DNA of 64,000 nt from Escherichia coli (GCF_048403405.1 NZ_CP183129.1), one strand, 5' to 3'; positions 1 through 18,754 are shown, counted from the first letter of the stretch. Notes: generated from the letters alone by a model not told the origin. Translations and numbers: made by a program.

Positions 1-1556
1 CCTGCGCCCGCGTCGCCATTAACCTTTCCTCGCCGCCGAAGCAAATCTCGGCGCTGACCACTCTGAGCCACCAGCAGGAGGCGGAAATTCGCCAGCTTGA
101 GCGCGAGCTTCGCATCGGGCTGCGTACCAACACCTCACGGATGACCGAGGTGCTGGTGCAGTACGATGAAACGCTGACGGCGCTGGATGAACTGGAAGCG
201 GCCTGGCATCAGCAGCAGGCGCTGGTCCGGGAGATTATCGCGCTGCGCCAGCAGTTGCTGGGCGTGGCAGAAGACGATGCGGCGTCGTTGCCGGACGCAG
301 ATGCCGCGGAGGATACGCCGCCAGAGTCAGAGTCAGAGTCAGAGTCAGAGTCAGAGTCAGAGTCAGAGTCAGAACAGGATAATACCGGTGCCGTACCGGC
401 TGATGAGGCCGACAGAGAACAGCCGGAAGAGACCGCTGAAACAGTTTCCCCGGTACAGCGGCTGGCCCAGCTCACTGCCGAACTGGACGCCCTGCATAAC
501 GACCGGTTGCTGGTCTCCCCGCACGTCGATAAAAAACAGATTGCGGCGGTGATTGCCGAATGGACCGGCGTGCCGCTCAACCGCCTGTCGCAGAATGAAA
601 TGTCGGTCATCACCGACCTGCCGAAATTGCTGGGCGACACCATCAAAGGCCAAGACCTGGCGATTGCCAGCCTGCATAAGCATCTACTGACCGCACGCGC
701 CGACCTGCGTCTTCCGGGACGCCCGCTCGGTGCGTTCCTGCTGGCTGGCCCCAGCGGTGTGGGTAAAACCGAAACCGTCCTGCAACTGGCAGAGCTGCTC
801 TACGGCGGTCGCCAGTACCTGACCACCATCAATATGTCCGAATTCCAGGAGAAACACACCGTCTCGCGGCTGATTGGTTCGCCTCCGGGCTACGTTGGCT
901 ACGGTGAAGGCGGCGTACTGACCGAAGCGATTCGCCAGAAACCCTACTCGGTAGTACTGCTCGATGAAGTGGAAAAAGCGCACCCGGATGTGCTCAACCT
1001 GTTCTACCAGTCGTTCGATAAGGGCGAAATGGCAGACGGTGAAGGCCGCCTGATTGACTGCAAAAATATCGTCTTCTTCCTGACGTCCAACCTCGGCTAC
1101 CAGGTAATAGTCGAGCACGCCGATGACCCGGAAACCATGCAGGAAGAACTGTATCCGGTGCTGGCCGACTTCTTCAAACCTGCCCTGCTGGCGCGTATGG
1201 AAGTGGTGCCGTATCTGCCGCTGTCGAAAGAGACGCTCGCCACCATTATCGCCGGAAAACTGGCCCGTCTGGATAACGTGCTGCGCAGTCGCTTTGGTGC
1301 AGAAGTGGTCATTGAACCGGAAGTGACGGACGAAATCATGAGCCGCGTCACCCGCGCGGAAAACGGCGCGAGGATGCTGGAATCGGTCATCGATGGCGAC
1401 ATGCTACCGCCGCTCTCGCTGCTGCTGTTGCAGAAAATGGCGGCTAACACGGCGATTGCCCGGATTCGGTTGTCGGCGGTGGACGACGCATTTACGGCAG
1501 ACGTGGAAGATGCTCAGAACGACGAGTCCGTCACAAAGGATGAAACGGTTTTATGA
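1..1556 (+). CDS. clpV: T6SS AAA+ ATPase ClpV/TssH, C-terminal ~518 codons (5' end lies outside the window)
   Basis: Reading frame is open from position 3 to the TGA at 1554-1556. Translation carries the second AAA+ module (Walker A LLAGPSGVGKTE, Walker B VVLLDEVEKAHPDV) and a Clp-type C-terminal domain. Confidence 0.85.
   Translation, partial: CARVAINLSSPPKQISALTTLSHQQEAEIRQLERELRIGLRTNTSRMTEVLVQYDETLTALDELEAAWHQQQALVREIIALRQQLLGVAEDDAASLPDADAAEDTPPESESESESESESESESEQDNTGAVPADEADREQPEETAETVSPVQRLAQLTAELDALHNDRLLVSPHVDKKQIAAVIAEWTGVPLNRLSQNEMSVITDLPKLLGDTIKGQDLAIASLHKHLLTARADLRLPGRPLGAFLLAGPSGVGKTETVLQLAELLYGGRQYLTTINMSEFQEKHTVSRLIGSPPGYVGYGEGGVLTEAIRQKPYSVVLLDEVEKAHPDVLNLFYQSFDKGEMADGEGRLIDCKNIVFFLTSNLGYQVIVEHADDPETMQEELYPVLADFFKPALLARMEVVPYLPLSKETLATIIAGKLARLDNVLRSRFGAEVVIEPEVTDEIMSRVTRAENGARMLESVIDGDMLPPLSLLLLQKMAANTAIARIRLSAVDDAFTADVEDAQNDESVTKDETVL
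324..371 (+). repeat. Perfect hexanucleotide tandem repeat (GAGTCA)x8 inside clpV, encoding (Glu-Ser)8
   Basis: Eight identical GAGTCA units read directly from the sequence, in frame with clpV and followed by GAA CAG. Confidence 0.95.
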
Positions 1557-2296
1557 GCAGGTTGCGCGTTTTCCGGCAGACAGGATGGTTTATCGCGGGC
1601 CTGATGACGGGCTTACCCGCCACTGCCGCGCCCGCAGAAACATCGTCAATGGCCGGTGTGGCGGTCGCCGTCGCCACCACGACCCCGCCGGATGCGACAG
1701 CCACGTCACAGGCCATGCAGTCCTGTCGGCGGGAGTCCGCGGCGCTGGAGCGGCTTGACTGCTATGACCGCCTGCTGGCACCGCTGTCCCCGTCAGGGTT
1801 TGACGGGGCGCTGGTCAAAGCCGGTTTTGTGGGCGAGGCCTGGACCCGCGCCACAGAGCAGGAAAAACGTCGCGAGGGCAACACCACAGAACTGCTGGTG
1901 ACGCAGGTGCCGGGGGAGCGCCCGACGGTGGTGATAACCACCCCGGCTATCGGCCATGTTCCGCCGCGCCCGGTGCTGATGTTCAGTTGCGTGGACAATA
2001 TCACCCGGATGCAGGTGGCGCTGATGCACCCTCTGGATGTCCATGATATCGCCGTCACTCTGAATGCCGACAGCCGGGCATTGCGTAGCCACTGGTTTGT
2101 GCGCGAGAACGGCACCCTGCTGGAGTCCAGCCGGGGGCTGTCCGGGATTGATGAAATTAAGCAACTGTTCGGCGCAAAAACGCTGACAGTGGATACCGGC
2201 GCAGATAACGCCGCAGGAAAGCTGACCTTTAACATTGACGGGCTGGCAAGGGCGATTGCCCCCCTGCGCGTTGCCTGCCACTGGGCGGGAGAATAA
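1553..2296 (+). CDS. T6SS-associated VasI-family protein (secreted/periplasmic, N-terminal signal peptide)
   Basis: ATG at 1553 overlaps the clpV stop (ATGA). N-terminal hydrophobic signal-like segment, then an Ala/Thr/Pro-rich tract. Position between clpV and tssA matches vasI in vas-type clusters. Family assignment is from recalled architecture, not a search. Confidence 0.55.
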   Translation: MSRLRVFRQTGWFIAGLMTGLPATAAPAETSSMAGVAVAVATTTPPDATATSQAMQSCRRESAALERLDCYDRLLAPLSPSGFDGALVKAGFVGEAWTRATEQEKRREGNTTELLVTQVPGERPTVVITTPAIGHVPPRPVLMFSCVDNITRMQVALMHPLDVHDIAVTLNADSRALRSHWFVRENGTLLESSRGLSGIDEIKQLFGAKTLTVDTGADNAAGKLTFNIDGLARAIAPLRVACHWAGE

Positions 2297-2300
2297 AAAT

Positions 2301-3713
2301 ATGGCAATGGACTTACGCGATCCGAATGTCTGGATAACGCACCTGCTGGAAAACCTGCCGGAAGAAAAACTGGCATCGGCGCTGAAAGATGACAACCCGG
2401 ACTGGGAGTATATCGACGGCGAAATCGTCAAACTGGGATCTCTGGCCCACAGTCAACTGGATATCCCGGAACTCCAGCGCCGGGGGCTGGTCATTCTGGC
2501 TTCGGAGAGTAAGGACTTTCGTCTGCTGGCGCATCTGCTGAGAACCCTGCAACACGCCGGTGATCCTCATCTCGCATTGCGCCTGCTGGCGCTGTATGTG
2601 GAGCATTACTGGTCGGTGGCTGCGCCGCAGAATATGGCACATAAAAAACGCTTTGCCAGCCAGGTCATTAAACGCTTCGAAACAGGTATTGAAGGCTTTT
2701 CACAGAACGCCGCCACAGCGCAGCGCGACGCGCTGTCAGGGGAACTGGCGAAACTGGCGCAGTGCTGGCAGTCACATAACGCCCCGGAACTGGCACTGGC
2801 TACCGATGATCTTTTTGCCCTGTACCAGCGTGCGTTTAATCGTGCGGCACCGGCTCCTGCCCCCACTCCGGCGGCCTCCGATAGTTCACGACAGACCACC
2901 GCCACGTCTGAAAGCGGCGTGACGCAACCCAGTGCTCCGGCTCCCCAAATCGCCATCGACAGTCACGACGACAAAGCCTGGCGCGACACGCTGTTAAAAG
3001 TGGCGGCTATTTTATGTGAACGCCAGCCGGACTCGCCGCAGGGCTATCGCCTGCGCCGCCATGCCCTGTGGCAATCCATCACCAGTACACCCCAGGCGGA
3101 AAGCGATGGACGTACCCCATTGGCTGCGGTCTCTGCCGATATGGTGGCGGATTACCAGTCCCGGCTTGCCAGCGCGGATATGGCGCTGTGGCAGCAGGTT
3201 GAGAAAAGCGTATTGCTGGCTCCTTACTGGCTGGACGGTCACTGTCTTTCTGCACAGACGGCACTGCGTCTGGGTTACAAACAGGTGGCAGACACCATCC
3301 GCGATGAGGTCATCCGCTTCCTTGAGCGTCTGCCCCAGCTTACCGGGCTGCTGTTTAATGACCGCACACCGTTTCTCAGTGAGCAGACGAAACAATGGCT
3401 GGCAGCTTCGCCCGACGGCAAAGTTGCACCGGTTGCGCAAATCGGTGAGGAATCGCAGGCAGCCAGAGCCTGTTTTGCTGGGCAGGGTCTGGAGGCGGCG
3501 CTGCGATATCTGGACATGCTACCCGAAGGCGATCCCCGCAATCAGTTTCACCGCCAGTACCTTGCCGCACAGTTGACGGAGGAGGCGGGGCTGATACAGC
3601 TTGCGCAGCAACAGTACCGGATGTTGTTGATGATAGGGAGTCAGATGATGGTGTCTGACTGGGAGCCATCATTACTTACGCAGCTTGAACAAAAATTCAC
3701 GGCAGAACAATAA
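2301..3713 (+). CDS. tssA: T6SS protein TssA (VasJ-like, ImpA_N-type N-terminal domain)
   Basis: ATG at 2301 just after the vasI-like stop (the tracked ORF starts further upstream at 2235). About 470 aa, lying between vasI and tssM as vasJ does. Confidence 0.7.
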   Translation: MAMDLRDPNVWITHLLENLPEEKLASALKDDNPDWEYIDGEIVKLGSLAHSQLDIPELQRRGLVILASESKDFRLLAHLLRTLQHAGDPHLALRLLALYVEHYWSVAAPQNMAHKKRFASQVIKRFETGIEGFSQNAATAQRDALSGELAKLAQCWQSHNAPELALATDDLFALYQRAFNRAAPAPAPTPAASDSSRQTTATSESGVTQPSAPAPQIAIDSHDDKAWRDTLLKVAAILCERQPDSPQGYRLRRHALWQSITSTPQAESDGRTPLAAVSADMVADYQSRLASADMALWQQVEKSVLLAPYWLDGHCLSAQTALRLGYKQVADTIRDEVIRFLERLPQLTGLLFNDRTPFLSEQTKQWLAASPDGKVAPVAQIGEESQAARACFAGQGLEAALRYLDMLPEGDPRNQFHRQYLAAQLTEEAGLIQLAQQQYRMLLMIGSQMMVSDWEPSLLTQLEQKFTAEQ

Positions 3714-3731
3714 AAGAGAACAGGAGTTTTT

Positions 3732-6700
3732 GTGTTCAGATTACCAACACCCCGACTACTCAGCGGACTCAAATCAGCCCTACGCCCGGCGATGCCCCGG
3801 TTTAAAGTCTCCGCTTTCTGGCTGCTGATACTGGCGTGGATTTTTCTGCTGGTATGGATCTGGTGGAAAGGCCCGACGTGGACGCTGTATGAAGAACAGT
3901 GGCTCAAACCACTGGCGAACCGCTGGCTGGCAACGGCGGCATGGGGGATTATCGCCCTAGTGTGGCTTACCGTCCGGATGATGAAGCGCCTGCAACAGCT
4001 TGAAAAAATGCAAAAGCAGCAGCGCGAGGAGGCCATTGATCCGCTCAGTGTGGAGCTGAACGCCCAGCAGCGTTACCTTGACCGCTGGCTGCTGCGCCTG
4101 CAACGCCATCTCGACAACCGCCGTTTCCTGTGGCAGTTGCCGTGGTATATGGTCATCGGCCCGGCGGGCAGTGGCAAAACGACACTGCTGCGCGAGGGTT
4201 TTCCGTCCGACATTATTTATGCCCCGGAGGGCGCACGCGGCGCAGAACAACGCCTGTACCTCACGCCCCATGTCGGTAAACAGGCGGTGATCTTTGATAT
4301 CGACGGCACACTCTGCGCTCCCGCTGATGCGGATATCCTGCATCGCCGTCTGTGGGAACATGCCCTCGGCTGGCTGAAAGAAAAGCGCGCGCGCCAGCCG
4401 CTGAACGGGATTATTCTGACACTCGATTTACCCGATCTGCTTACCGCAGACAAACGCCGCCGCGAACATCTGTTACAGACGCTGCGCAGCCGCTTGCAGG
4501 ATATACGCCAGCATCTTCACTGCCAGTTACCGGTTTACGTGGTACTCACCCGGCTTGATTTATTGCAGGGTTTTGCCGCCCTGTTCCAGTCACTGAACAG
4601 ACAGGATCGCGATGCAATTCTAGGGGTCACGTTCACCCGCCGCGCCCATGAAAATGATGACTGGCGAACAGAGTTGAATGCTTTCTGGCAGACATGGGTG
4701 GATCGAATGAACCTAGCGTTGCCGGATCTGATGGTCGCTCAGACTCACACCCGCGCGTCTTTATTTAGTTTTTCCCGCCAGATGCAGGGAAGCCGTGAAC
4801 CACTGGTGTCACTGCTTGAGGGTCTGCTTGACGGCGAAAATATGAACGTGATGCTGCGTGGCGTCTATCTCACCTCTTCGCTTCAGCGCGGACAGATGGA
4901 TGATATTTTCACCCAGTCTGCCGCCCGCCAATACCGGCTGGGCAATAACCCACTGGCGTCCTGGCCTCTGGTGGACACCGCACCCTATTTCACCCGTAGC
5001 CTGTTCCCGCAGGCATTACTCGCAGAGCCTAATCTGGCAACAGAAAGCCGCACCTGGCTGATGCGTTCCCGTCGCCGCCTGACGGTTTTCTCTACCACAG
5101 GAGGCGTGGCGGCACTGCTGCTCATCACCGGCTGGCATCACTATTACAACGGTAACTATCAGTCCGGCATCACCGTGCTTAAGCAGGCAAAAGCCTTTAT
5201 GGATGTACCGCCTCCGCTGGGGGAAGATGATTACGGCAACCTGCAACTGCCGCTGCTGAACCCGGTACGCGATGCCACGCTGGCCTATGGCGACTGGGGC
5301 GACCGCAGCCGTCTGGCCGATATGGGACTGTACCAGGGACGGCGTATCGGGCCTTATGTGGAACAAACCTATCTGCAACTGCTGGAGCAGCGTTACCTGC
5401 CTTCGCTGTTTAACGGGCTGGTCAAAGCGATGAACGCCGCGCCGCCGGAGAGTGAGGAAAAACTCGCCGTGCTGCGTGTGATGCGAATGCTGGAGGACAA
5501 AAGCGGACGCAATAATGAGGTGGTGAAGCAGTATATGGCAAAACGCTGGAGCGAAAAATTCCACGGCCAGCGCGATATCCAGGCACAACTGATGTCCCAT
5601 CTTGACTACGCGCTGGCTCATACTGACTGGCATGCAGAGCGTCAGGCGGGCGACGGTGATGCCATCAGCCGCTGGACGCCATATGACAAGCCTGTTGCGA
5701 CAGCACAGAAAGAACTGAGCAAACTGCCTGTCTACCAGCGAGTTTACCAGAGCCTGAAAACGCGGGCGCTGGGCGTTCTTCCTGCCGACCTCAATCTGCG
5801 TGACCAGGTAGGGCCAACTTTTGACCAGGTATTTACATCTGCCGATGATAACAAACTGGTTGTTCCACAGTTTCTTACCCGTTACGGCCTGCAAAGCTAT
5901 TTTGTAAAACAGCGCGATGAACTGGTTGAACTGACGGCGATGGATTCCTGGGTACTCAACCTCACCCGCAGCGTGAAATACAGTGACGCCGACCGCGCGG
6001 AAATCCAGCGCCAGTTGACCGAGCAGTATATCAGCGACTACACCGCCACCTGGCGGGCCGGGATGGACAATCTGAATATCCGCAATTTTGAGTCCATCGG
6101 ACAACTGACCGGGGCGCTGGAGCAGGTTATCAGCGGCGACCAGCCTTTGCAGCGGGCGCTGACCGTGCTGCGTGACAACACACAGCCAGGCGTCTTTTCT
6201 GAAAAACTCTCTGCCAAAGAGCGGGATGAGACCCTGGCAGAGCCGGATTACCAGTTACTCACCCGCCTCGGGCATGAATTCGCCCCGGAAAACAGTACCC
6301 TGACAGTACAGAAAGACAAAGAAAGCACGATGCAGGCCGTATACCAGCAGCTCACCGAGTTACACCGCTACCTGCTGGCAATCCAGAACGCGCCTGTACC
6401 AGGGAAATCGGCGCTGAAAGCCGTGCAGTTAAGGCTTGATCAGAACAGCAGCGATCCAATATTCGCCACCCGCCAGATGGCAAAAACACTGCCTGCTCCG
6501 CTCAACCGCTGGGTAGGCAGGCTGGCTGACCAGGCCTGGCATGTGGTGATGGTGGAAGCCGTTCACTATATGGAAGTGGACTGGCGCGACAGCGTGGTGA
6601 AACCGTTTAACGAGCAACTGGCAAATAACTATCCGTTTAATCCACATTCTGCACAGGATGCCTCACTGGATGCCTTCGAACGATTCTTTAAACCAGATGG

Positions 6701-7256
6701 CATACTGGATACCTTCTACCAGCAGAACCTAAAGCTGTTTATCGACAATGACCTGAGTCTGGAGGATGGCGATAACAACGTCATTATTCGCGAAGATATT
6801 ATTGCGCAACTGGAAACCGCGCAGAAAATCCGTGACATATTCTTCAGCAAACAGAACGGTCTGGGAACATCCTTTGCCGTGGAAACGGTATCGCTTTCCG
6901 GCAACAAACGCCGCAGCGTACTGAACCTTGACGGTCAGTTAGTCGATTACAGCCAGGGCCGTAACTATACCGCCCATCTGGTCTGGCCTAACAATATGCG
7001 CGAAGGCAACGAAAGCAAACTGACGCTGGTTGGTGCCCGCGGCGGCGCACCGCGCAGTATCAGCTTCAGCGGGCCGTGGGCTCAGTTCCGCCTGTTCGGG
7101 GCCGGACAGCTGACCGGAGTACAGGATGGCAACTTTACCGTGCGCTTTAGTGTGGACGGTGGCGCAATGACCTACCGCGTGCATACCGACACGGAAGATA
7201 ACCCGTTCAGCGGTGGGTTATTCAGCCAGTTTGGCCTGTCAGACACACTGTACTGA
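3732..7256 (+). CDS. tssM: T6SS membrane-complex protein TssM (IcmF/VasK family)
   Basis: GTG start at 3732 preceded by AGGAG at 3722-3726. 1174 aa with N-terminal transmembrane segments and a Walker A motif (GPAGSGKTT). Confidence 0.9.
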   Translation: MFRLPTPRLLSGLKSALRPAMPRFKVSAFWLLILAWIFLLVWIWWKGPTWTLYEEQWLKPLANRWLATAAWGIIALVWLTVRMMKRLQQLEKMQKQQREEAIDPLSVELNAQQRYLDRWLLRLQRHLDNRRFLWQLPWYMVIGPAGSGKTTLLREGFPSDIIYAPEGARGAEQRLYLTPHVGKQAVIFDIDGTLCAPADADILHRRLWEHALGWLKEKRARQPLNGIILTLDLPDLLTADKRRREHLLQTLRSRLQDIRQHLHCQLPVYVVLTRLDLLQGFAALFQSLNRQDRDAILGVTFTRRAHENDDWRTELNAFWQTWVDRMNLALPDLMVAQTHTRASLFSFSRQMQGSREPLVSLLEGLLDGENMNVMLRGVYLTSSLQRGQMDDIFTQSAARQYRLGNNPLASWPLVDTAPYFTRSLFPQALLAEPNLATESRTWLMRSRRRLTVFSTTGGVAALLLITGWHHYYNGNYQSGITVLKQAKAFMDVPPPLGEDDYGNLQLPLLNPVRDATLAYGDWGDRSRLADMGLYQGRRIGPYVEQTYLQLLEQRYLPSLFNGLVKAMNAAPPESEEKLAVLRVMRMLEDKSGRNNEVVKQYMAKRWSEKFHGQRDIQAQLMSHLDYALAHTDWHAERQAGDGDAISRWTPYDKPVATAQKELSKLPVYQRVYQSLKTRALGVLPADLNLRDQVGPTFDQVFTSADDNKLVVPQFLTRYGLQSYFVKQRDELVELTAMDSWVLNLTRSVKYSDADRAEIQRQLTEQYISDYTATWRAGMDNLNIRNFESIGQLTGALEQVISGDQPLQRALTVLRDNTQPGVFSEKLSAKERDETLAEPDYQLLTRLGHEFAPENSTLTVQKDKESTMQAVYQQLTELHRYLLAIQNAPVPGKSALKAVQLRLDQNSSDPIFATRQMAKTLPAPLNRWVGRLADQAWHVVMVEAVHYMEVDWRDSVVKPFNEQLANNYPFNPHSAQDASLDAFERFFKPDGILDTFYQQNLKLFIDNDLSLEDGDNNVIIREDIIAQLETAQKIRDIFFSKQNGLGTSFAVETVSLSGNKRRSVLNLDGQLVDYSQGRNYTAHLVWPNNMREGNESKLTLVGARGGAPRSISFSGPWAQFRLFGAGQLTGVQDGNFTVRFSVDGGAMTYRVHTDTEDNPFSGGLFSQFGLSDTLY

Positions 7257-7266
7257 GGAGGCAGGG

Positions 7267-8619
7267 ATGAATAGTAACGGACTGACACAAACTATCGTTA
7301 CCGGCAGTGACCCGCGCGGGCTGCCGGAATTCAGCGCCATCCGCGAGGAAATAAACAAAGCCAGCCATCCGTCACAGCCTGAGCTGAACTGGAAACTGGT
7401 GGAGTCGCTGGCGCTGGCGATTTTTAAAGCCAACGGTGTGGATTTACACACCGCCACCTACTATACGCTTGCCCGGACACGGACACAGGGACTGGCGGGA
7501 TTCTGCGAAGGTGCGGAACTGCTGGCGGCAATGGTAAGCCACGACTGGGATAAATTCTGGCCGCAGGGCGGTCCGGCGCGTACTGAAATGCTGGACTGGT
7601 TTAACTCCCGAACCGGCAATATTCTGCGTCAGCAAATCTCCTTTGCGGAACCCGATCTGCCACTGATCTACCGCACAGAGCGGGCATTGCAGCTTATCTG
7701 CGACAAGCTTCAGCAGGTGGAGCTGAAGCGCGTTCCGCGCGTGGAGAATCTGCTCTATTTTATGCAGAACACGCGTAAGCGGCTTGAACCCCAGCCGAAG
7801 AGTAACGTTGAAAACGCCGTACAGACCACGGTTAGAACACTGATTTATGCCCCGGAAACAACGGCTTCCTCCACGCCAGAAGCGGTAGTGCCTCCCCTGC
7901 CCGACCTGCCTGAGATGAAAGTAGAAGTGCGCAGTCTGTCAGAGAATCCCCCACAGGCCAGTGTGATGAAGCAAGGCAGTACGGTAAGAGGGTTTATCAC
8001 GGGGATCGCCTGTTCAGTGGCTGTCGCCTCAGCATTGTGGTGGTGGCAGGTCTATCCGGTGCAACAGCAACTGTTACAGGTTAACGACACCGCGCAGGGC
8101 GCAGCAACGGTGTGGATGGCCTCACCTGAACTAGAAAACTATGAGCGCAGGCTACAACAGCTTCTTGGCGTCTCCCCGGTACAACCGCTGGAAACCGGGA
8201 TGCAGATGATGCGTGTTGCCGACAGTCGCTGGCCGGAAAGCCTGCAGCAGCAGCAGGCCTCGACACATTGGAATGAAGCACTCAAAACCCGCGCACAGAG
8301 TAGCCCGCAGTTGCGTGGCTGGTTGCAGACCCGTCAGGACTTACATGCTTTTGCAGATCTCGTGATGCGGCGCGAGAAAGAGGGACTAACCCTTTCCTAT
8401 ATCAAAAATGTCATCTGGCAGGCGGAGCGGGGACTGGGGCAGGAAACACCCGTTGAGTCTCTGTTGACGCAGTACCAGGATGCCCGTGCGCAGAAGCAGA
8501 ATATAGATGCGCTGGAAAAACAAATTAATGAGCGACTCGAAGGCGTGTTAATCCGCTGGCTGCTGCTGAAGAATAACGTCATGCCAGAGGCGGCAACCGG
8601 GACCACGGCCGAAAAATAA
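7267..8619 (+). CDS. VasL-like T6SS accessory protein (ImpA_N-related N-terminus, one central transmembrane helix)
   Basis: ATG at 7267 after GAGGAGG, 10 bp after the tssM stop. Predicted TM segment ITGIACSVAVASALWWW. Position after tssM corresponds to vasL. Confidence 0.6.
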   Translation: MNSNGLTQTIVTGSDPRGLPEFSAIREEINKASHPSQPELNWKLVESLALAIFKANGVDLHTATYYTLARTRTQGLAGFCEGAELLAAMVSHDWDKFWPQGGPARTEMLDWFNSRTGNILRQQISFAEPDLPLIYRTERALQLICDKLQQVELKRVPRVENLLYFMQNTRKRLEPQPKSNVENAVQTTVRTLIYAPETTASSTPEAVVPPLPDLPEMKVEVRSLSENPPQASVMKQGSTVRGFITGIACSVAVASALWWWQVYPVQQQLLQVNDTAQGAATVWMASPELENYERRLQQLLGVSPVQPLETGMQMMRVADSRWPESLQQQQASTHWNEALKTRAQSSPQLRGWLQTRQDLHAFADLVMRREKEGLTLSYIKNVIWQAERGLGQETPVESLLTQYQDARAQKQNIDALEKQINERLEGVLIRWLLLKNNVMPEAATGTTAEK

Positions 8620-8642
8620 TTATTTAATTAAAGGAGATTATC

Positions 8643-9125
8643 ATGGCAAATATGAGTTATTTATCTTTGAGTGGAGAGACACAAGGGCTGATTTCAGCAG
8701 GTTGCTCAACGCTTGATTCTGTCGGAAACAAAGCACAGCCAGAACATAAAGATCAGATCATGGTTTATGCGTTAATGCATTCCATCTCAAGAAGTCAAAA
8801 TGTCAATCATCATGAATTAATTATCACCAAACCGGTTGATAAATCCTCACCATTGCTGGCAAAAGCACTTAGTGACAATGAAAAAATGGTAACATGTGAA
8901 TTTATACTCTACCGAACCAGTAAAGCGGGTATTTACCAGCCTTATTATAAAATAAACCTGTCAAAAGCCCGAATATCAAGTATTGATTTTGTCACACCGC
9001 ATGCTGTCCTGGAAAAAGAACTGGAGCCACAGGAGAGAATTGCCTTTATTTATGAAGATATTTCCTGGGAGCATACGTTAGCCGGTACGAATGCAATGAG
9101 TAAATGGCAGGATCGTGTACAGTAA
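8643..9125 (+). CDS. hcp: Hcp-family T6SS tube protein (divergent, encoded in AT-rich DNA)
   Basis: 160 aa, AAGGAG RBS at 8631-8636. Length and motif pattern (SSPLL-KA, Y-I-L-A-I, IAF-YE-ISW) resemble Hcp. Confidence 0.75.
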   Translation: MANMSYLSLSGETQGLISAGCSTLDSVGNKAQPEHKDQIMVYALMHSISRSQNVNHHELIITKPVDKSSPLLAKALSDNEKMVTCEFILYRTSKAGIYQPYYKINLSKARISSIDFVTPHAVLEKELEPQERIAFIYEDISWEHTLAGTNAMSKWQDRVQ

Positions 9126-9168
9126 TTTACTGTAATAACATAATAAATTACTATTGCGGAGAGATATA

Positions 9169-10083
9169 ATGGCTGGTTTAAGGAATAATAACAACACACA
9201 GAATGCACAGTGGGCTGATTATGTGGGTGACATTCTTCGGGGGGCTCAACCGATAAACCAGCTAGTACCTCAGCACCCTTATCTTAACGACGTCCCACTC
9301 ATTGATGAATTAAGGCGTCAGAACACTCATCATGTTATTCTCTTGACACTTGATGTTGCAAAAAAAATACTCAGCTCAATAACATCATTTGATTACATTC
9401 ATTTTATCACTACACATCCTTCAGGTATAAAAGATACACTCGCTTGGTTAGTTAACGCGGGTAAATTAATGACTGAGTTTGATGGAAATGGGAAAATTAT
9501 ATTTAACTTTAATACCTTAAAGTATACAAAAGCAAGTTACTTTGAAATACTTGGAGAGAAATATATAAAAATTACAACATCCAGCCCCTGGCTTTTAGAA
9601 AAGCTCGGTAAATATATTTTCTCTTCACGAGCGCCTCAAGTTCTGGAACTCGCTATTGGCTGGCGAGGAGCTTTATCTGAATCAATAAAAGGAGTTAAGT
9701 TCTGTATCTGGTTTTCAGTAGCCTGGAGAACCATAGAATTTATTATGAGTTCAGAGCGAGATCTGGTTAATTTTCTTGGTGATTTTTCAATGGATGTGGC
9801 CAAAGCAGTGATTGCAGGCGGTGTTGCAACTGCTATTGGAAGCCTGGCTTCTTTTGCCTGTCTTAGTTTTGGCCTTCCAGTAATTCTTGTAGGAGGAGCA
9901 ATTTTACTTACAGGGATAGTGTGTACAGTTGTTTTAAATGAAATCGATGCTCAATACCATTTATCAGAAAAATTAAAAGATGCAATTAGAGATGGACTAA
10001 AACGGCAACAGGAACTTGATAAATGGAAAAGGGAAAACATGACTCCATTTATGTATGTTCTTAACACTTCCCCCGTGATATGA
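9169..10083 (+). CDS. Hypothetical protein; candidate Hcp-linked T6SS effector with C-terminal glycine-zipper hydrophobic helices
   Basis: ATG at 9169 with GGAG 7 nt upstream (tracked ORF begins at a TTG at 9154). AT-rich codon usage matching hcp. C-terminal segment VAKAVIAGGVATAIGSLASFACLSFGLPVILVGGAILLTGIVCTVVL. Function is inferred from context only. Confidence 0.55.
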   Translation: MAGLRNNNNTQNAQWADYVGDILRGAQPINQLVPQHPYLNDVPLIDELRRQNTHHVILLTLDVAKKILSSITSFDYIHFITTHPSGIKDTLAWLVNAGKLMTEFDGNGKIIFNFNTLKYTKASYFEILGEKYIKITTSSPWLLEKLGKYIFSSRAPQVLELAIGWRGALSESIKGVKFCIWFSVAWRTIEFIMSSERDLVNFLGDFSMDVAKAVIAGGVATAIGSLASFACLSFGLPVILVGGAILLTGIVCTVVLNEIDAQYHLSEKLKDAIRDGLKRQQELDKWKRENMTPFMYVLNTSPVI

Positions 10084-10247
10084 GGATTAACTATGCGTTT
10101 ACATGTTAAATTGAAAGAGTTTTTTTCGATGTTTTTTATAGCCATATTATTTTTCCCTGCATTCAATGCTTCTTTATTTTTTACCGGAATTAGGTGATGC
10201 TGCCAACTTACTGATTTAGTGTATGATGGTGTTTTTGAGGTGCTCCA

Positions 10248-10523
10248 GTGGCTTCTGTTTCTATCAGCTGTCCCTCCTGTTCAGCTACTGACGGGGTGGT
10301 GCGTAACGGCAAAAGCACCGCCGGACATCAGCGCTATCTCTGCTCTCACTGCCGTAAAACATGGCAACTGCAGTTCACTTACACCGCTTCTCAACCCGGT
10401 ACGCACCAGAAAATCATTGATATGGCCATGAATGGCGTTGGATGCCGGGCAACCGCCCGCATTATGGGCGTTGGCCTCAACACGATTTTCCGCCATTTAA
10501 AAAACTCAGGCCGCAGTCGGTAA
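10248..10523 (+). CDS. insA: IS1 InsA (transposition inhibitor / N-terminal part of transposase)
   Basis: 91-aa ORF beginning [43 protein letters not shown], inside IS1. Confidence 0.9.
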
Positions 10524-10945
10524 CCTCGCGCATACAGCCGGGCAGTGACGTCATCGTCTGCGCGGAAATGGACGAACAGTGGGGATACGTCGGGGCTAAA
10601 TCGCGCCAGCGCTGGCTGTTTTACGCGTATGACAGGCTCCGGAAGACGGTTGTTGCGCACGTATTCGGTGAACGCACTCTGGCCACACTGGAGCGTCTTC
10701 TAAGCCTGCTGTCGGCCTTTGAGGTCGTGGTATGGATGACGGATGGCTGGCCGCTGTATGAATCCCGCCTGAAGGGAAAGCTGCACGTAATCAGCAAGCG
10801 TTACACTCAGCGAATTGAGCGGCATAACCTGAATCTGAGACAACATCTGGCAAGGCTGGGACGGAAGTCACTGTCGTTCTCAAAATCGGTGGAGCTGCAT
10901 GACAAGGTCATCGGGCATTATCTGAACATAAAACACTATCAGTAA
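10442..10945 (+). CDS. insB: IS1 InsB reading frame (expressed as InsAB' transposase by -1 frameshifting)
   Basis: -1 frame ORF overlapping the end of insA, translation typical of IS1 InsB ([21 protein letters not shown]...). Confidence 0.88.
10496..10505 (+). promoter_or_regulatory. IS1 programmed -1 ribosomal frameshift site TTTAAAAAAC
   Basis: A6C motif lies in the insA/insB overlap; the IS1 frameshift mechanism is established knowledge. Confidence 0.8.
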
Positions 10946-11484
10946 GTTGGAGTCATTACCCGGAATTAAACCTCTATATTCAATAATAAAAGGCTCCACG
11001 GAAATATTTTATGATTGGAGAATGTTGATTCTATGCTTCGGTTTCATATCGTTTTCCTTGTTAAATATTCATGTAATTTTACTAACAATAATAAAATCAT
11101 TCTTAATAAAAAAAACAAAGGTAATCAATTTCGCCACAGACATAACAATACAGCTAACTCTTATATTTTTACTAATAGCTATCGTAATAGCACCTTTAAT
11201 AGCTCCTTTTGTCACAGGATATGTCAATGCTAATTGTCACCCCTGCGGTAATAACACGGGGATTTTCCCAGGAGCAATCTATATTAAAAATGGCATAAAA
11301 TGTAATAATGAACATATTTCTCGCAAGGAAGATTAAGCAGTTAAATAATTAAATATTCTAAAACAAACAGTTTTTAACGCCGGATTCCATGTCCTTTCTT
11401 GCACTGTCTTTGTCAGGAACAATTTCTTATGCAAAGAATTTTGTATTATTGCCGCCAGAAATTCCTGGCGGCAGATATAATTTA

Positions 11485-12270
11485 TTATTGATAGCGGTTA
11501 ACCAAATCTTTTACCATCGCTTTATAGGTCTTTTGCTTAAGTTGTATGATTTGCTGCTCTGTCATATCAGTCGTACTGGCTTCATTCTTGCCGGGAAATG
11601 GTGGAAGCACTTTATATTCATAATTCACCGGCGACCAGGCAGCCCACTCACCTGTAGCTACATCCACCAGCGTGAATCGCACCAGATAGCGCAGTGAGAT
11701 TGTGTTAGTCAGTTTTTCATTTTTATAATCGGACCATACTGTTGATTTCAGTGCAGTGTCATATTTTCCTGTCTGCAACGTATCCTGGTAAACAATAATC
11801 GCTTTCTGATGGCCTTTTGCCGCCACAAAACGTAATGCCTGCATCCAGTTCATATTTTCAGCACTGGCAACATCCTCGTTCTCATTTTTATCTTTGTTTT
11901 TGTTACAAGTCAGAGGCTTTTGTCTGTCCGGGATACCAGAGAATGTGGAAACAGTATAATATTTTCGCATCTCCTCCTGCATAATGGTTTCCGGTGCGCG
12001 ACTGCCAGACTGGACAAGTATTACGGGAGAATTGAGAGGCACACGAAACTCATCTCCTTCAAGCGCAGCCTGAATATCCTCCTCGGATACAGCCAGAGTG
12101 GTTTCATTACCGAATAAATCTTTGTCTGTCAGTTGCGGGGGAATGTTTTTATTAATATTACTTTGTGTAACTTGAACTTTTTTCTTTTTTTCATCAATAG
12201 AAGATTGAGAGGCACATCCTGCAAGCAGCGAGAATAATACACATATGCAACAAACCTTTTTTGAATTCAT
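11485..12270 (-). CDS. yafT: Lipoprotein YafT
   Basis: 261 aa with lipobox LLAGC after a signal peptide; lies next to aspV as yafT does in K-12. Confidence 0.8.
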
Positions 12271-12536
12271 AATCGGACACTCCCTCGCCTGTCATAATGA
12301 TTAGAATATTTAGCACTGATAACGGACTCTAATTATATACCCCACTTAAATAATAACAAACAAAATCAACATGAAATATACATTCATTTAATCAATATAA
12401 AATTATTCACTAAAAATATATTTAAGTTGAATGGTTCGATATCATTATTGAATTTTAATAAATGAGACAACAAGCGAGAGTTACGCACTTACGCCAGAGT
12501 AAAATCATTGAACAGAGAAATATCGTGATTTAAATG

Positions 12537-12569
12537 CAAAAAAACCGCAAAATTAAAAATTTTGCGGTT
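12537..12569 (-). terminator. Rho-independent terminator downstream of aspV
   Basis: Palindrome AACCGCAAAATT/AATTTTGCGGTT followed on the minus strand by a T-run. Confidence 0.6.
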
Positions 12570-12596
12570 CTCTGAACTCATTTTCATGAGTGAATT

Positions 12597-12673
12597 TGGC
12601 GGAACGGACGGGACTCGAACCCGCGACCCCCTGCGTGACAGGCAGGTATTCTAACCGACTGAACTACCGCTCC
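12597..12673 (-). tRNA. aspV: tRNA-Asp (GTC)
   Basis: Reverse complement reads GGAGCGGTAGTTCAGTCGGTTAGAATACCTGCCTGTCACGCAGGGGGTCGCGGGTTCGAGTCCCGTCCGTTCCGCCA. Confidence 0.97.
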
Positions 12674-12696: not shown

Positions 12697-12731
12697 GGCG
12701 AATATTACGGATTGCCTCACCCTTCGTCAAC
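12697..12731 (-). promoter_or_regulatory. Putative aspV promoter (TTGACG, 17-nt spacer, TAATAT)
   Basis: On the minus strand, -35 at 12725-12730 and -10 at 12703-12708, followed by a GC-rich discriminator before the tRNA 5' end. Confidence 0.5.
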
Positions 12732-12805
12732 GGTTTTTCTCATCTTTTGAATCGTTTGCTGCAAAAATCGCCCAAGTCGCTATTTTTAGCGCCTTTTACA
12801 GGTAT

Positions 12806-13537
12806 TTATGCCCGCCAGAGGCAGCTTCCGCCCTTTTTCTGCACCAGATCGAGACGGGCTTCATGTGCCGCAAGCTCTTCATCTGTCGCAAAAACAACGC
12901 GTAACTTACTTGCCTGACGCACAATGCGCTGAATTGTTGTTTCACCTTGTTGCTGTTGTGTCTCTCCTTCCATCGCAAAAGCCATCGACGTTTGACCACC
13001 AGTCATCGCCAGATAAACTTCCGCAAGGATCTGGGCATCGAGTAATGCCCCGTGCAACGTTCGTTTACTGTTATCTATTTCGTAGCGGGCACATAACGCA
13101 TCGAGGCTGTTGCGCTTACCGGGAAACATTCTCCTCGCCACCGCAAGGCTATCGGTGACCTTACAGAAGGTATTGGTCTTCGGAATATCGCGCTTAAGCA
13201 ACGAAAACTCGTAGTCCATAAAGCCGATATCGAACGCTGCGTTATGGATCACCAACTCCGCGCCGCGAATATAGTCCATGAACTCATCGGCTACTTCGGC
13301 AAACGTGGGCTTATCGAGCAAAAATTCATCGGCAATACCATGTACGCCAAAGGCTTCCGGATCCACCAGCCGATCGGGTTTGAGATAAACATGGAAGTTA
13401 TTGCCCGTCAGGCGACGGTTCACCACTTCAACGGCACCAATCTCAATGATCTTGTGGCCTTCATAGTGCGCGCCAATCTGGTTCATACCGGTGGTTTCGG
13501 TATCGAGAACGATCTGGCGTGTAATTGCAGTGCTCAT
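12806..13537 (-). CDS. dnaQ: DNA polymerase III epsilon subunit (3'-5' proofreading exonuclease)
   Basis: Translation [20 protein letters not shown]...GGSCLWRA, 243 aa. Confidence 0.97.
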
Positions 13538-13601
13538 AGCGGTCATTTATGTCAGACTTATCGTTTTACAGTTCGATTCAATTACAGGAAGTCTACCAGA
13601 G

Positions 13602-14069
13602 ATGCTTAAACAGGTAGAAATTTTCACCGATGGTTCGTGTCTGGGTAATCCAGGACCTGGGGGTTACGGCGCTATTTTACGCTATCGCGGACGCGAGAAA
13701 ACCTTTAGCGCAGGCTACACCCGCACCACCAACAACCGTATGGAGTTGATGGCCGCTATTGTCGCGCTGGAGGCGTTAAAAGAACATTGCGAAGTCATTT
13801 TGAGTACCGACAGCCAGTATGTCCGCCAGGGTATCACCCAGTGGATCCATAACTGGAAAAAACGTGGCTGGAAAACCGCAGACAAAAAACCAGTAAAAAA
13901 TGTCGATCTCTGGCAACGTCTTGATGCTGCGCTGGGGCAGCATCAAATCAAATGGGAATGGGTTAAAGGCCATGCCGGTCATCCAGAAAACGAACGTTGC
14001 GATGAACTGGCTCGTGCCGCAGCGATGAATCCCACACTGGAAGATACGGGCTATCAAGTCGAAGTTTAA
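13602..14069 (+). CDS. rnhA: Ribonuclease HI
   Basis: Translation [23 protein letters not shown]...TGYQVEV, 155 aa; divergent from dnaQ. Confidence 0.97.
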
Positions 14070-14791
14070 GCCTGTGGTTTACGACATTGCCGGGTGGCTC
14101 CAACCGCCTGGCGAATTCGTGGCTTGTTTTTACTCTGTTTCATCGGATTTAGCGTTAAAGGAATAGTCCGTTTCCGGGCGACAATAAGTTGTAAGCAACC
14201 AAGCGCAGGAATATGCGCATTCAATAGTTTTCCACCGTGTTTGTTCCACGGGAGAACGTGGAAACGGCTGGCGTGTAGCACTTCAAAATTCAACAAAGAG
14301 AGCCAGTCCAGCTGCCGCATCAGAGTAAACATCCGGCTATTATAGGGCGAGGTTTTGCGCAATACCGGCACAAGTTTTCGTAATCCCATTAAACTGATGG
14401 GATTGAAGCCACTAATCACCAGCCAGCCATCATCAATCAATACCCGATCGGCTTCACGCAATAAACGATGCGGATCGGTGCACCATGGCAATGTATGTGC
14501 CAGTAGACAAACATCAACGGATTTATCGGCAAAAGGAAGATGAAGTGGGTCCGCCTGCACCTGGACGGGCAGTCCTTGCGCAGAAACATTCACTTGATGA
14601 GAAACCGCGCACGCTTCGCAATTGATTTCTGCGCTTAAATTGCCAATCTTAAGCAGATGAAAACCATACATTTTAGTGAACCACGGGTTGAGCTGGCGCT
14701 CCAGCGCCTTGCGATAAAGCTCTCCCCAGGGCAAATCGCCCCAGCAATCAGGAGCCACGACAGTTTGAGGGACTCTTGCCGGTTTCATCAC
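14066..14791 (-). CDS. yafS: SAM-dependent methyltransferase YafS
   Basis: ~240-aa ORF at the position of yafS; first codon may be one Met downstream. Confidence 0.8.
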
Positions 14792-14818
14792 AACCTTCCG
14801 TTTCGCACTGAGAGGTAA

Positions 14819-15577
<759 letters not shown>

Positions 15578-15648
15578 TAAAACTTTCTTGTCATCGGCTC
15601 CGTTCGCCGTTATGATCGGTCGTCTTTTAAGCAACTATTGACACACAC

Positions 15649-17007
15649 ATGAAGGCAAAAGCGATATTACTCGCCTCTGTCCTGCTCGTGGGTTGCCAGA
15701 GTACCGGCAACGTTCAACAGCACGCACAGAGCCTTTCTGCAGCTGGTCAAGGGGAAGCAGCAAAGTTTACAAGTCAGGCACGATGGATGGACGATGGGAC
15801 GTCTATCGCGCCAGATGGTGACTTGTGGGCTTTCATTGGCGACGAGCTAAAGATGGGAATTCCGGAAAATGACCGGATTCGCGAACAGAAACAGAAATAT
15901 TTACGCAATAAGAGCTATCTCCACGATGTAACTTTACGGGCAGAGCCGTATATGTACTGGATAGCCGGGCAAGTTAAAAAACGTAACATGCCTATGGAAC
16001 TGGTACTACTACCCATAGTGGAGAGCGCTTTTGATCCTCACGCAACGTCTGGCGCCAATGCCGCAGGCATCTGGCAGATCATTCCGAGCACGGGGCGCAA
16101 TTATGGTTTGAAACAGACCCGCAATTATGACGCGCGTCGCGATGTTGTTGCTTCAACAACTGCCGCGCTGAACATGATGCAGCGTCTGAACAAAATGTTT
16201 GACGGCGACTGGCTTCTGACCGTAGCGGCTTATAACAGCGGCGAAGGTCGGGTCATGAAGGCAATTAAAACGAACAAAGCGCGTGGGAAATCCACGGACT
16301 TCTGGTCGTTACCGTTGCCGCAAGAAACGAAGCAGTACGTGCCTAAAATGCTGGCATTGAGTGATATTCTCAAAAACAGCAAGCGTTATGGCGTACGTCT
16401 GCCAACGACCGATGAAAGCCGTGCTCTGGCGCGTGTGCACCTGAGCAGCCCGGTTGAAATGGCGAAGGTTGCAGATATGGCGGGGATTTCCGTCAGCAAG
16501 CTGAAGACATTCAACGCTGGCGTGAAAGGCTCCACGCTGGGCGCAAGTGGTCCGCAGTACGTGATGGTGCCAAAGAAGCATGCAGATCAACTGCGTGAAT
16601 CTCTGGCTTCGGGCGAAATTGCTGCTGTACAGTCGACGCTGGTTGCCGACAATACGCCGCTTAACAGCCGTGTTTACACCGTACGCTCTGGCGACACGCT
16701 TTCAAGCATCGCTTCACGTCTCGGCGTAAGCACCAAAGATTTGCAGCAGTGGAACAAACTGCGCGGCTCTAAGCTGAAACCAGGCCAAAGTCTGACGATT
16801 GGCGCAGGTAGTAGCGCACAGCGGTTGGCAAACAACAGCGATAGCATTACTTATCGTGTGCGCAAAGGCGATTCGCTTTCAAGCATTGCTAAACGCCACG
16901 GCGTGAACATCAAAGATGTGATGCGCTGGAACAGCGATACTGCGAATCTGCAACCAGGCGATAAGCTGACGTTGTTTGTGAAAAACAACAACATGCCAGA
17001 TTCCTGA
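15649..17007 (+). CDS. mltD: Membrane-bound lytic murein transglycosylase D
   Basis: 452 aa, lipoprotein signal (LLVGC), transglycosylase domain and C-terminal LysM repeats. Confidence 0.93.
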   Translation: MKAKAILLASVLLVGCQSTGNVQQHAQSLSAAGQGEAAKFTSQARWMDDGTSIAPDGDLWAFIGDELKMGIPENDRIREQKQKYLRNKSYLHDVTLRAEPYMYWIAGQVKKRNMPMELVLLPIVESAFDPHATSGANAAGIWQIIPSTGRNYGLKQTRNYDARRDVVASTTAALNMMQRLNKMFDGDWLLTVAAYNSGEGRVMKAIKTNKARGKSTDFWSLPLPQETKQYVPKMLALSDILKNSKRYGVRLPTTDESRALARVHLSSPVEMAKVADMAGISVSKLKTFNAGVKGSTLGASGPQYVMVPKKHADQLRESLASGEIAAVQSTLVADNTPLNSRVYTVRSGDTLSSIASRLGVSTKDLQQWNKLRGSKLKPGQSLTIGAGSSAQRLANNSDSITYRVRKGDSLSSIAKRHGVNIKDVMRWNSDTANLQPGDKLTLFVKNNNMPDS

Positions 17008-17024
17008 CAAACCAGATAATGAAA

Positions 17025-17053
17025 GGCACCGATTCCCCCGGTGCCATTTTTTA
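17025..17053 (+). terminator. Rho-independent terminator after mltD
   Basis: Hairpin GGCACCGATTCCCCCGGTGCC followed by ATTTTTTATTT. Confidence 0.65.
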
Positions 17054-17054
17054 T

Positions 17055-17825
17055 TTATGCTGCTTTATGTGCTTCTACCATGATGATATCACTGGTGAAA
17101 GAGCCATCATTCTGCAAGGCAAAATACGTTTTCACCTCTGTCGATGCGCTCTGTTGGTAAATGCGAATAGCGTCTACTAACGCTTCTGGCGTACGCATTC
17201 TCGCGACCCATGAAGAAAATTCCAGCGGTAACTTATCTGTAATTAAATTATCAACTATCAGATTGGCTTCATTGATTAACGTCAACCACTCACCGCTGGC
17301 GTAGTTTCGTACGTGAGAGGTATCGCGTAATGCTTCTACCGTCTGTAACCAGATGTCGCGCACTGGATGACCCGGAGACATTACGTCCATCACAATCAGC
17401 CTACCGCCGGGTTTCAATACCCGATTCACTTCACGCAGTGCTGCACCAACATCATGCCAGTGATGGGCAGAATAACGGCTGATAACAATATCAAATGCGT
17501 TATCGGCAAATGGCAGACTTTCGACATAACCCTGGCGGGTGGTGATATTTTTCAGTTGCCGGGCTTCGGCAGCTTGTGCCACGACATCCAGCATGTGGGC
17601 AGATAAGTCATACGCCACCACCGCGCTCACGTTCTGCGCAGCGACAAAGCTGGCATGCCCTGCTCCGCAGCCCATATCAAGTACACTTGCATCAGGATAA
17701 TCAGCCAGACGCACCGCCAGGCGCTGTAAATCCCGTCCGGATGCATGTACGGTACTAGTCAGATATTCGCTAGCTTGAGAGCTAAACTGCTTTTCTACGT
17801 GGTCATGGTGGGATTGTGTTGTCAT
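17055..17825 (-). CDS. yafE: SAM-dependent methyltransferase (UbiE/COQ5-like) YafE
   Basis: Methyltransferase motif LDMGCGAGH; true start may be internal to the tracked ORF. Confidence 0.7.
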   Translation of the reverse strand: MTTQSHHDHVEKQFSSQASEYLTSTVHASGRDLQRLAVRLADYPDASVLDMGCGAGHASFVAAQNVSAVVAYDLSAHMLDVVAQAAEARQLKNITTRQGYVESLPFADNAFDIVISRYSAHHWHDVGAALREVNRVLKPGGRLIVMDVMSPGHPVRDIWLQTVEALRDTSHVRNYASGEWLTLINEANLIVDNLITDKLPLEFSSWVARMRTPEALVDAIRIYQQSASTEVKTYFALQNDGSFTSDIIMVEAHKAA

Positions 17826-17902
17826 TGCGCTGTCCTTTTGTTGTTTGAGTATAAAAGGGCAGCGCCAAACGTTGGTCTGCCCTGTGGCAGACCTGACATA
17901 CC

Positions 17903-18754
<852 letters not shown>

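Follow-up and report, generated by a model that had tools for sequence, protein, structure and literature searches.

A stretch of 64,000 nucleotides from Escherichia coli (NZ_CP183129.1, assembly GCF_048403405.1; "the window" throughout) carries, between positions 8620 and 11336, three adjacent genes: hcp, a gene for a 304-residue protein, and ykfM. We read this region, with a probability of roughly 0.8, as the cargo end of an aspV-linked E. coli type VI secretion system (T6SS) cluster, made up of hcp, the gene for a Tme-family effector (tme) and a Tmi-type immunity gene (ykfM, or tmi). The pair would encode a T6SS-delivered membrane toxin and its immunity protein, with the immunity gene broken in this strain. 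The first-pass annotation of this DNA had placed an effector–immunity cassette beside hcp, and that placement is backed by homology, by domain fusions and by conserved neighbourhoods. Its description of the toxin system as uncharacterised has to be abandoned. The system belongs to the Tme/Tmi family, whose Vibrio members have been tested and whose E. coli protein stands in a published supplementary table; the family is already in print, along with its mode of action and its E. coli representative, and this is a known system.

Identification of the effector follows from the family definition and from identity to a listed protein. The Tme family is defined by a DxxK motif, a transmembrane (TM) helix and an aspartate (Fridman et al. 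2020, Nat Commun 11:1085, PMC7046647). Supplementary Data 5 of that work lists E. coli proteins of 302/304 amino acids, including WP_000908051.1, WP_000908052.1 and WP_022645204.1, with Tme at residues 122-277 (E ~1e-36; 4.65e-37 for WP_022645204.1), a TIGR03344 Hcp gene 43 bp upstream and a protein of 155/159 amino acids with three TM helices encoded 9-14 bp downstream (PMC7046647). Over 300 amino acids the window protein shares 97% identity with WP_022645204.1 and, as it also bears the Tme signature, it is a catalogued member of the family. When 38 diverse members are aligned, neither D209 nor D260 varies, K212 is conserved in at least 90%, and these residues bracket the sole strongly hydrophobic stretch of the protein (~213-259). 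Their equivalents in 12 long relatives (D324, K327 and D369) are all invariant. Kyte-Doolittle windows of 19 residues exceed 1.6 when they begin at residues 213-243, six small-xxx-small motifs lie within the hairpin, and the published Phobius TM helix of E. coli Tme spans 234-256 (PMC7046647).

General-purpose searches had little to say about this protein. The 304-residue product has no match in Pfam, NCBIfam or the Protein Data Bank (PDB), and its RefSeq label is "hypothetical protein"; the single match returned by the PDB sequence search, of the hairpin to the alpha-pore-forming toxin AhlB (E=0.91), is insignificant, is an analogy at most, and was not used as evidence. A word-indexed search recovered 19 clusters only, whose members come from Escherichia, Salmonella, Rahnella and metagenomes. 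Exhaustive searching with HMMER across 1.84 billion representatives (threshold E<=1e-3) gave 169 relatives that share a common core at residues ~120-290. Some of these are proteins of 400-840 amino acids with the tme core at the C-terminus. Among 12 such proteins, four carry PAAR at the N-terminus (best E=1.5e-17) and one has the PAAR-like DUF4280, a domain order that marks the PAAR-fused relatives as predicted specialised T6SS spike toxins.

The partner gene was recovered by computational repair. When the insertion sequence IS1 and one copy of its target duplication are removed (joining 10093-10192 to 10969-11336), ykfM has 155 codons and its product is identical to YkfM of strain 4621 and 92% identical to YkfM of K-12. 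Three hydrophobic segments are seen, at ~10-33, 51-81 and 85-121; the Phobius topology published for a YkfM-type protein is i12-32o52-75i96-119o (PMC7046647). The protein encoded 3' of tme in Salmonella shares 49% identity with YkfM (E=3e-46). This Salmonella neighbour in turn matches DUF1240 (PF06836) at E=0.075 across the full model, and a related neighbour does so at E=8.2e-5. Alignment of the YkfM family profile with that of the DUF1240 neighbours by hhalign gave a probability of 99.9% (E=9.7e-34). A C-terminal tail, Y..C...G.F.G..Y.K....C (noted as Y..C...GIF.G..Y.K....C for the ykfM 3' fragment), is common to YkfM and the DUF1240 proteins. Among 11 sampled family loci, nine have a Pfam DUF1240 gene directly 3' of tme; the remaining two have small open reading frames (ORFs) with no Pfam call, one of them YkfM. 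Tmi immunity proteins are described as DUF1240 or DUF1240-like with 3-6 TM helices (PMC7046647). YkfM fits this description and, judged by homology, is probably a Tmi immunity protein of the DUF1240 type: it shares with DUF1240/Tmi proteins the place directly 3' of tme, the length of ~150 amino acids, the three TM helices and the Cys tail, and differs from them in falling below every Pfam threshold. A precomputed DUF1240 label on P0178 was not reproduced by direct scan and was set aside in favour of the Salmonella/Rahnella neighbour comparison.

In the window strain ykfM is interrupted after its nucleotide 100, at codon 34, by an IS1 element that is the sole copy in the window. Both ends of the element are present and perfect (left terminal repeat GGTGATGCTGCC, right end GGAGTCATTACC), and an 8-bp target duplication, CGGAATTA, flanks it. 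The first-pass annotation had described three AT-rich reading frames between 8620 and 11336. The genes are indeed AT-rich; the third frame is not intact, as 768 bp of the interval are a GC-rich IS1 that splits ykfM. The listed ORF 10947-11336 is just the 3' part of the third gene, and the annotation did not mention the break. This ORF begins at a TTG within the IS1 end and encodes five IS1-derived residues followed by YkfM ~33-155. The ykfM::IS1 junction was found in none of 5,426 complete E. coli genomes.

Removal of TM1 by IS1 is predicted to abolish protection by YkfM and, with it, the self-protection of the strain. It is conceivable that the truncated product of ORF 10947-11336, expressed by read-through of IS1 or from an outward promoter, still protects the cell. 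The ORF is in frame and keeps TM2, TM3 and the Cys-containing tail, a promoter-like match lies at the left end of IS1 (10200-10227), and tiny amounts of an immunity protein can suffice elsewhere, as for colicin Ia (PMC10761095). We nevertheless hold residual immunity to be quite unlikely. Loss of TM1 from a protein with three TM helices should, from the Phobius topology, invert or abolish its insertion; the TTG has no obvious ribosome-binding site and would be a weak start; and the N-terminal helix is kept in all intact homologs. A promoter scan of the AT-rich tract returned 11 matches against 11.1 expected, which is background and gives no sign of an internal promoter.

The loss of ykfM in the window strain can be set against the states of the pair in other E. 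coli. Of the 5,426 complete genomes, 2,561 have tme DNA over its full length and ~430 others have a 3' remnant only; among 11 genomes inspected, the annotation shows an intact pair in 10. Strain MS 69-1 (locus L004) has a tme 100% identical to that of the window together with an intact ykfM. Strain 4621 differs from the window by three single-nucleotide polymorphisms in 4,555 bp. One of them, G>A at window position 9725 (TGG>TAG), produces W186* in tme, while ykfM is intact (L003, 3532-4446). The window has the opposite state, with tme intact and ykfM interrupted by IS1. MS 69-1 (both genes intact), strain 4621 (toxin dead) and the window strain (immunity dead) thus form a natural allelic series for self-intoxication and locus decay. 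The core genes that flank the tme pseudogene of strain 4621 are annotated intact, an observation that bears on whether the 304-residue protein could instead serve the T6SS as a structural or accessory component in the membrane. Its position inside the cluster, its co-orientation and tight spacing with the core genes, and its membrane-spanning segments would be in keeping with such a role. The decay of tme beside an intact core is not, nor are the occurrence of tme in orphan islets that lie a long way from a T6SS core, the use of the tme core as a C-terminal extension of PAAR in relatives, and the lack of a match to any core-component model. We regard a structural role as hardly credible, and the product is neither structural nor housekeeping.

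In K-12 MG1655, the segment equivalent to window 9727-11336 (L002, 3258-4085) contains the "pseudogene" yafU, which corresponds to Tme residues 193-304 (its final 112 codons) at 96% identity, and an intact ykfM. The T6SS core and hcp are gone, together with ~190 codons from the start of tme, through a deletion with its junction at ~9727 in window coordinates, beside an ISAs1/H-repeat remnant (yafF). By homology and position, yafU/ykfM of K-12 is evidently a relic of a tme/tmi pair. The relic shares with the window the 9-bp spacing and the yafT-aspV-dnaQ flank, and differs in that tme is truncated and ykfM intact, where the window has an intact tme and a broken ykfM. The literature search found no paper that ties ykfM or yafU to a T6SS. 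The orphan immunity genes apparently kept in K-12 and in strain 4621 are typical for effector–immunity loci. One practical consequence is that K-12 ykfM may already protect common laboratory hosts when toxicity is assayed.

The cassette is set off from the T6SS core by an abrupt change of composition. Precisely at the vasL stop (8619), GC in a sliding profile drops from 0.55-0.58 to 0.36-0.40. As the first-pass annotation had claimed, composition is not uniform: gene by gene GC goes from 0.56 for tssM and vasL (0.563 and 0.560) to 0.39 for hcp (0.391), 0.38 for ORF 9169-10083 (0.378) and ~0.30 for ykfM (fragments 0.27 and 0.31), and GC at third codon positions drops from ~0.63-0.65 in tssM and vasL to 0.27-0.34 from hcp onward. 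The gene order it described, hcp, the 304-residue ORF and a small membrane gene at 9 bp, is likewise correct (vasL-hcp 23 bp; hcp-tme 43 bp; tme to the ykfM ATG at 10093, 9 bp). The vasL-like product has a TssA-type N-terminal match. The AT-rich tract goes on past 11336, through yafT, up to the tRNA-Asp gene, and contains no gene for VgrG, PAAR or an adaptor. The region is flanked by the end of the T6SS cluster on the left, most of whose core falls outside the window, and by yafT, tRNA-Asp (aspV), dnaQ and rnhA on the right. Window 12700-18700 is 100% identical to several clinical E. coli strains; on this ground a Shigella origin, to which the IS1 had seemed to point, was rejected. Coordinates are collected in Table 1.

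Table 1. Features of the T6SS cargo end and its surroundings (window coordinates).
Feature	Position	Strand	Basis or remark
tssM	3732-7256		T6SS core gene; GC 0.563
vasL-like gene (ImpA_N/VasL)	7267..8619	+	final GC-rich core gene; composition boundary; 450-aa VasL domain protein in relatives; GC 0.560
hcp (tssD), AT-rich, encodes the 160-aa T6SS tube protein	8643..9125	+	TIGR03344; GC 0.391
Conserved handle: 3' end of hcp, hcp-tme intergenic region, first ~43 tme codons	8952..9296	+	homology to other cassette types stops here
tme, 304-aa Tme-family effector, intact	9169..10083	+	97% identical to WP_022645204.1
Tme domain (residues 122-277)	9532..9999	+	literature coordinates for 97-100% identical E. 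coli proteins; core common to distant homologs
DxxK motif (D209-V-A-K212)	9793..9804	+	D209 invariant, K212 >=90% conserved (38-sequence alignment)
Putative hydrophobic helical hairpin (~residues 213-259), then invariant D260	9805..9948	+	Kyte-Doolittle, small-xxx-small motifs, AlphaFold2
ykfM (tmi) 5' fragment, codons 1-33 + 1 nt, encodes TM1	10093..10192	+	starts 9 bp past tme stop
Left target-site duplication, CGGAATTA	10185..10192	.	
IS1, 768 bp, insA/insB on + strand, GC 0.534	10193..10960	+	terminal repeats, InsA/InsB ORFs; annotated IS1 in relatives
Right target-site duplication, CGGAATTA	10961..10968	.	
ykfM (tmi) 3' fragment, codons 34-155 + stop (TM2, TM3, Cys-containing tail)	10969..11336	+	tblastn 100% identity to YkfM residues 32-155
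Terminator-like GC-rich hairpin	11449..11474	+	between convergent ykfM and yafT; 10-bp stem, 7 GC pairs; consensus match only
yafT lipoprotein gene	11485..12270	-	AT-rich (0.415); right-hand neighbour of cassette; PF25851:YafT same place in Salmonella and L016
tRNA-Asp (aspV)	12597..12673	-	island insertion landmark; ARAGORN

The junction at which composition changes is old. Salmonella has the order tssM-vasL-hcp-tme-tmi-...-yafT-dnaQ with an equal GC step at the vasL/hcp junction, and both junction and step are also present in a third genus (locus L016; dnaQ at 82% nucleotide identity). The step, being shared with Salmonella and this third genus, argues for an old vasL/hcp junction and against a recent graft in this genome. 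Orphan hcp-tme-tmi islets amid unrelated metabolic genes are seen in Rahnella and on one metagenome contig, which indicates that the cassette moves independently. The first-pass view that the cassette was acquired separately from the core is therefore upheld by the islets, and is mistaken in so far as a recent graft was meant. Protein identity between E. coli and Salmonella decreases from DnaQ/RnhA (0.92-0.93) through TssM (0.84), VasL (0.76) and Hcp (0.74) to Tme (0.62) and Tmi (0.47). The cargo pair evolves fastest, in a pattern that points to an arms race.

A second type of cassette occupies the same place in other loci. The type-2 toxin (~330 amino acids; P0016, P0018, P0019 and P0022) has a body 33-36% identical to Tme, and its first ~45 residues are nearly identical to those of Tme. 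In the blastn comparison of the window with the type-2 locus L016, similarity is unbroken from tssM to 9296 (128 nt into tme), and there is none thereafter. Salmonella (L007, 7486-9010) has a decayed type-2 toxin (orf169 + orf43) and its own DUF1240 gene 3' of the first pair, and ahead of this second cassette 8952-9042 and 9163-9293 (hcp 3' and tme 5' sequences, respectively) are found again as duplicates. The tme locus thus acts like a polymorphic-toxin array in which cassettes are exchanged across a handle made of the 3' end of hcp plus the 5' end of tme. It resembles the Rhs/CdiA-CT orphan arrays in its conserved handle with variable toxin and immunity genes, in its tandem decayed cassettes (Salmonella) and in its orphan immunity genes (K-12 and strain 4621). 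Unlike those arrays, its handle is the hcp 3' end plus ~43 codons with no large core, and Tme is a cargo, not a C-terminal extension.

The peptide encoded by the handle (Tme residues 1-43, window 9169-9296) has the motif W.DY.GD.LRG..PINQL.PQHPY, near-identical across cassette types and missing in distant members. The motif is not RIX, going by the negative search in the ETEC (enterotoxigenic E. coli) study. It may be a loading signal or a mere recombination handle. An adjacent hcp is found at six of eight motif-bearing tme loci, the window's included, and at none of three loci without the motif, a difference that is not significant (Fisher p ~0.06) and comes from loci that are not phylogenetically independent. 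A tentative extension of these observations, which we consider rather unlikely, is that the ~345-bp unit 8952-9296 encodes a new Hcp loading signal for polymorphic Tme, the Hcp-cargo counterpart of MIX, FIX and RIX, and at the same time serves as the cassette-swap handle of the Enterobacteriaceae at the aspV T6SS. If the loading-signal proposal were true, it would follow that K-12 laboratory strains hold a live orphan immunity gene, ykfM, against the toxin of about half of natural E. coli.

The adjacent hcp is itself unexceptional. Its product matches TIGR03344 with E=1e-60 and 204.5 bits (cut-off 58.9), residues 1-157 aligning with positions 1-166 of the 167-position model, and among solved structures Hcp3 of P. 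aeruginosa (3he1, E=2e-23) comes closest. It is a canonical full-length Hcp/TssD and is divergent by composition alone; the first-pass description of a divergent hcp was correct on composition and wrong on sequence. Identification with the hcp2B of avian pathogenic E. coli (APEC), with a known downstream pair, was ruled out, as that operon is hcp2B-vgrG2-DUF2169-XmtU/XmtV and is another locus.

Whether this Hcp carries Tme is a separate matter. The cassette had been called Hcp-dependent: the adjacency stands, and the dependence was read from adjacency alone, while relatives ride PAAR and Tme1 rides RIX. A serious alternative, possible in our view if on balance doubtful, is that Tme is loaded on the VgrG/PAAR spike, directly or via an adaptor, and that hcp adjacency reflects a shared recombination unit in place of a physical partnership. 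The fusion of PAAR or DUF4280 to the toxin core in five of the 12 long relatives, the N-terminal RIX domain used by Tme1 and the several Tme family members with no hcp nearby all speak for it, as does the size of Tme. Against spike loading, hcp adjoins six of the eight motif-bearing tme genes, among them those of orphan hcp-tme-tmi islets that contain neither vgrG nor PAAR; the end of hcp and the start of tme move as one; and the spike and adaptor genes are likewise missing from the AT-rich tract of the window.

The activity proposed for the pair draws on Vibrio parahaemolyticus. Tme1 and Tme2 are secreted by the T6SS, are toxic only from the periplasm, depolarise and permeabilise the cell, and are countered only by the cognate Tmi (PMC7046647). 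Like the E. coli pair, Tme1/Tmi1 and Tme2/Tmi2 combine a C-terminal DxxK + TM + D domain, an adjacent gene for a multi-TM DUF1240-like immunity protein, and a link to a T6SS. They differ at the N-terminus, where Tme1 has RIX and E. coli Tme has the W.DY.GD.LRG..PINQL.PQHPY motif, directly after hcp and with an interrupted immunity gene. The marine and PAAR-fused Tme members are 22-30% identical to E. coli Tme. By analogy with the Vibrio homologs, secretion, periplasmic toxicity, depolarisation and cognate protection would be expected of the E. coli pair as well. The T6SS would export Tme, the adjacent Hcp being the probable carrier, and Tme would arrive in the periplasm of a neighbouring Gram-negative cell. 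There its C-terminal hairpin (~213-259), framed by DxxK and D260, would insert into the inner membrane of the target, dissipating the membrane potential and permeabilising the cell. In sister cells YkfM, a putative inner-membrane protein with three TM helices, its N-terminus inside and a Cys-containing periplasmic tail, would neutralise the incoming Tme. The window strain, with ykfM split by IS1, would either keep the cluster silent or pay a cost when attacked by kin. Silencing by H-NS is reported for an E. coli T6SS2 (PMC5874247), and its bearing on this cluster is conjectural.

Another function for the pair was weighed, namely that it acts mainly on the host (eukaryotic membranes) or as an envelope-stress module, with YkfM in a protective housekeeping role. 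K-12 has no T6SS, and a ykfM::Tn5 mutation in it changes the killing by nalidixic acid, mitomycin C and SDS (PMC2824699); in APEC and K1 strains, Hcp proteins of the T6SS are linked to host-cell phenotypes. These K-12 phenotypes are modest and come from one transposon screen. An anti-host or stress function also sits poorly with a dedicated, fast co-diverging membrane immunity gene that is always directly 3' of tme, and with a Tme family that is experimentally antibacterial. We judge it very unlikely and retain the antibacterial effector–immunity reading.

Several points weigh against that reading. A direct Pfam scan of YkfM and seven homologs gave no DUF1240 (PF06836) match; with no match of its own and the nearest labelled relative at E=0.075, the link of YkfM to Tmi is transitive. 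The AlphaFold2 model of Tme is weak overall (pLDDT 62, pTM 0.38; both are the program's confidence scores). Built from the 38-sequence alignment, it has only the four long C-terminal helices at moderate confidence, including helices at 199-234 and 238-263 with pLDDT 70-83. Foldseek comparison of this model with the PDB gave a best E of 0.15 and TM-scores <0.2 (pentameric channels and KpsE), hits that we discarded as meaningless. With a poor model and no structural neighbour, insertion as a helical hairpin rests on hydropathy and analogy. The literature searched holds no experiment on the E. coli tme/ykfM pair. An intact toxin beside a broken immunity gene would be unstable if active, which suggests that the cluster may be silent or defective here. 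Finally, Tme (304 amino acids, 34 kDa) is bigger than typical cargo of the Hcp lumen.

Placed among other T6SS effectors, E. coli Tme would be expected to share with VasX, Tse4, Ssp6, Ssp4 and Tke5 an action from the periplasmic side of the inner membrane, depolarisation and a membrane-embedded immunity protein; it has no detectable sequence or fold relation to any of them. The Tme authors likewise describe the Tme motif and secondary structure as distinct from those of other membrane-targeting effectors (PMC7046647). As a discovery the present assignment adds little, since the toxin family, its mode of action and the immunity family were published in 2020. What may be new is modest: the reading of the K-12 genes as a relic, the reciprocal decay in near-identical strains, and the hcp-3'/tme-5' handle with its peptide motif. 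There is value for annotation, as a RefSeq "hypothetical protein" with no Pfam or NCBIfam model is an effector that is effectively invisible. A 2023 survey of ETEC T6SS reported no cargo effectors, and ETEC-2264, a strain discussed in that survey, has an intact tme/ykfM pair.

Some further observations concern the surroundings of the cassette. The T6SS core (window 1-8619) has a GC content of 0.55-0.67, against ~0.50 for the backbone from 12700 and a window mean of 0.516, and is foreign in the direction opposite to the cargo. With a GC-rich core and an AT-rich cargo relative to the backbone, the island is a mosaic of two parts. The mechanically called ORFs of vasL and tssM begin 18-20 codons 5' of the RefSeq starts in relatives (450 and 1154 amino acids, respectively), the added stretches being 7213-7266 and 3732-3791; the extended vasL ORF runs into the end of tssM, and the shorter annotated starts are probably right. 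The yafT product is 48% identical to its Salmonella counterpart, a divergence like that of the immunity gene, and the gene always adjoins the cassette on the right. More short AT-rich dips (GC 0.31-0.34) are found at 12200-12600, just upstream of yafT/aspV, and at 15000-15800 in the backbone (~15.2-15.6 kb).

Two database entries among the relatives of tme have unusual architectures. P0010 ("eukprot", 295 amino acids) is an apparent Hcp-Tme fusion in a eukaryotic set and in all likelihood comes from an erroneous gene model on contaminating E. coli sequence. P0080 (275 amino acids) looks like a deletion fusion of the 5' part of tme with a tmi-like membrane part, and has a YYDWR motif.

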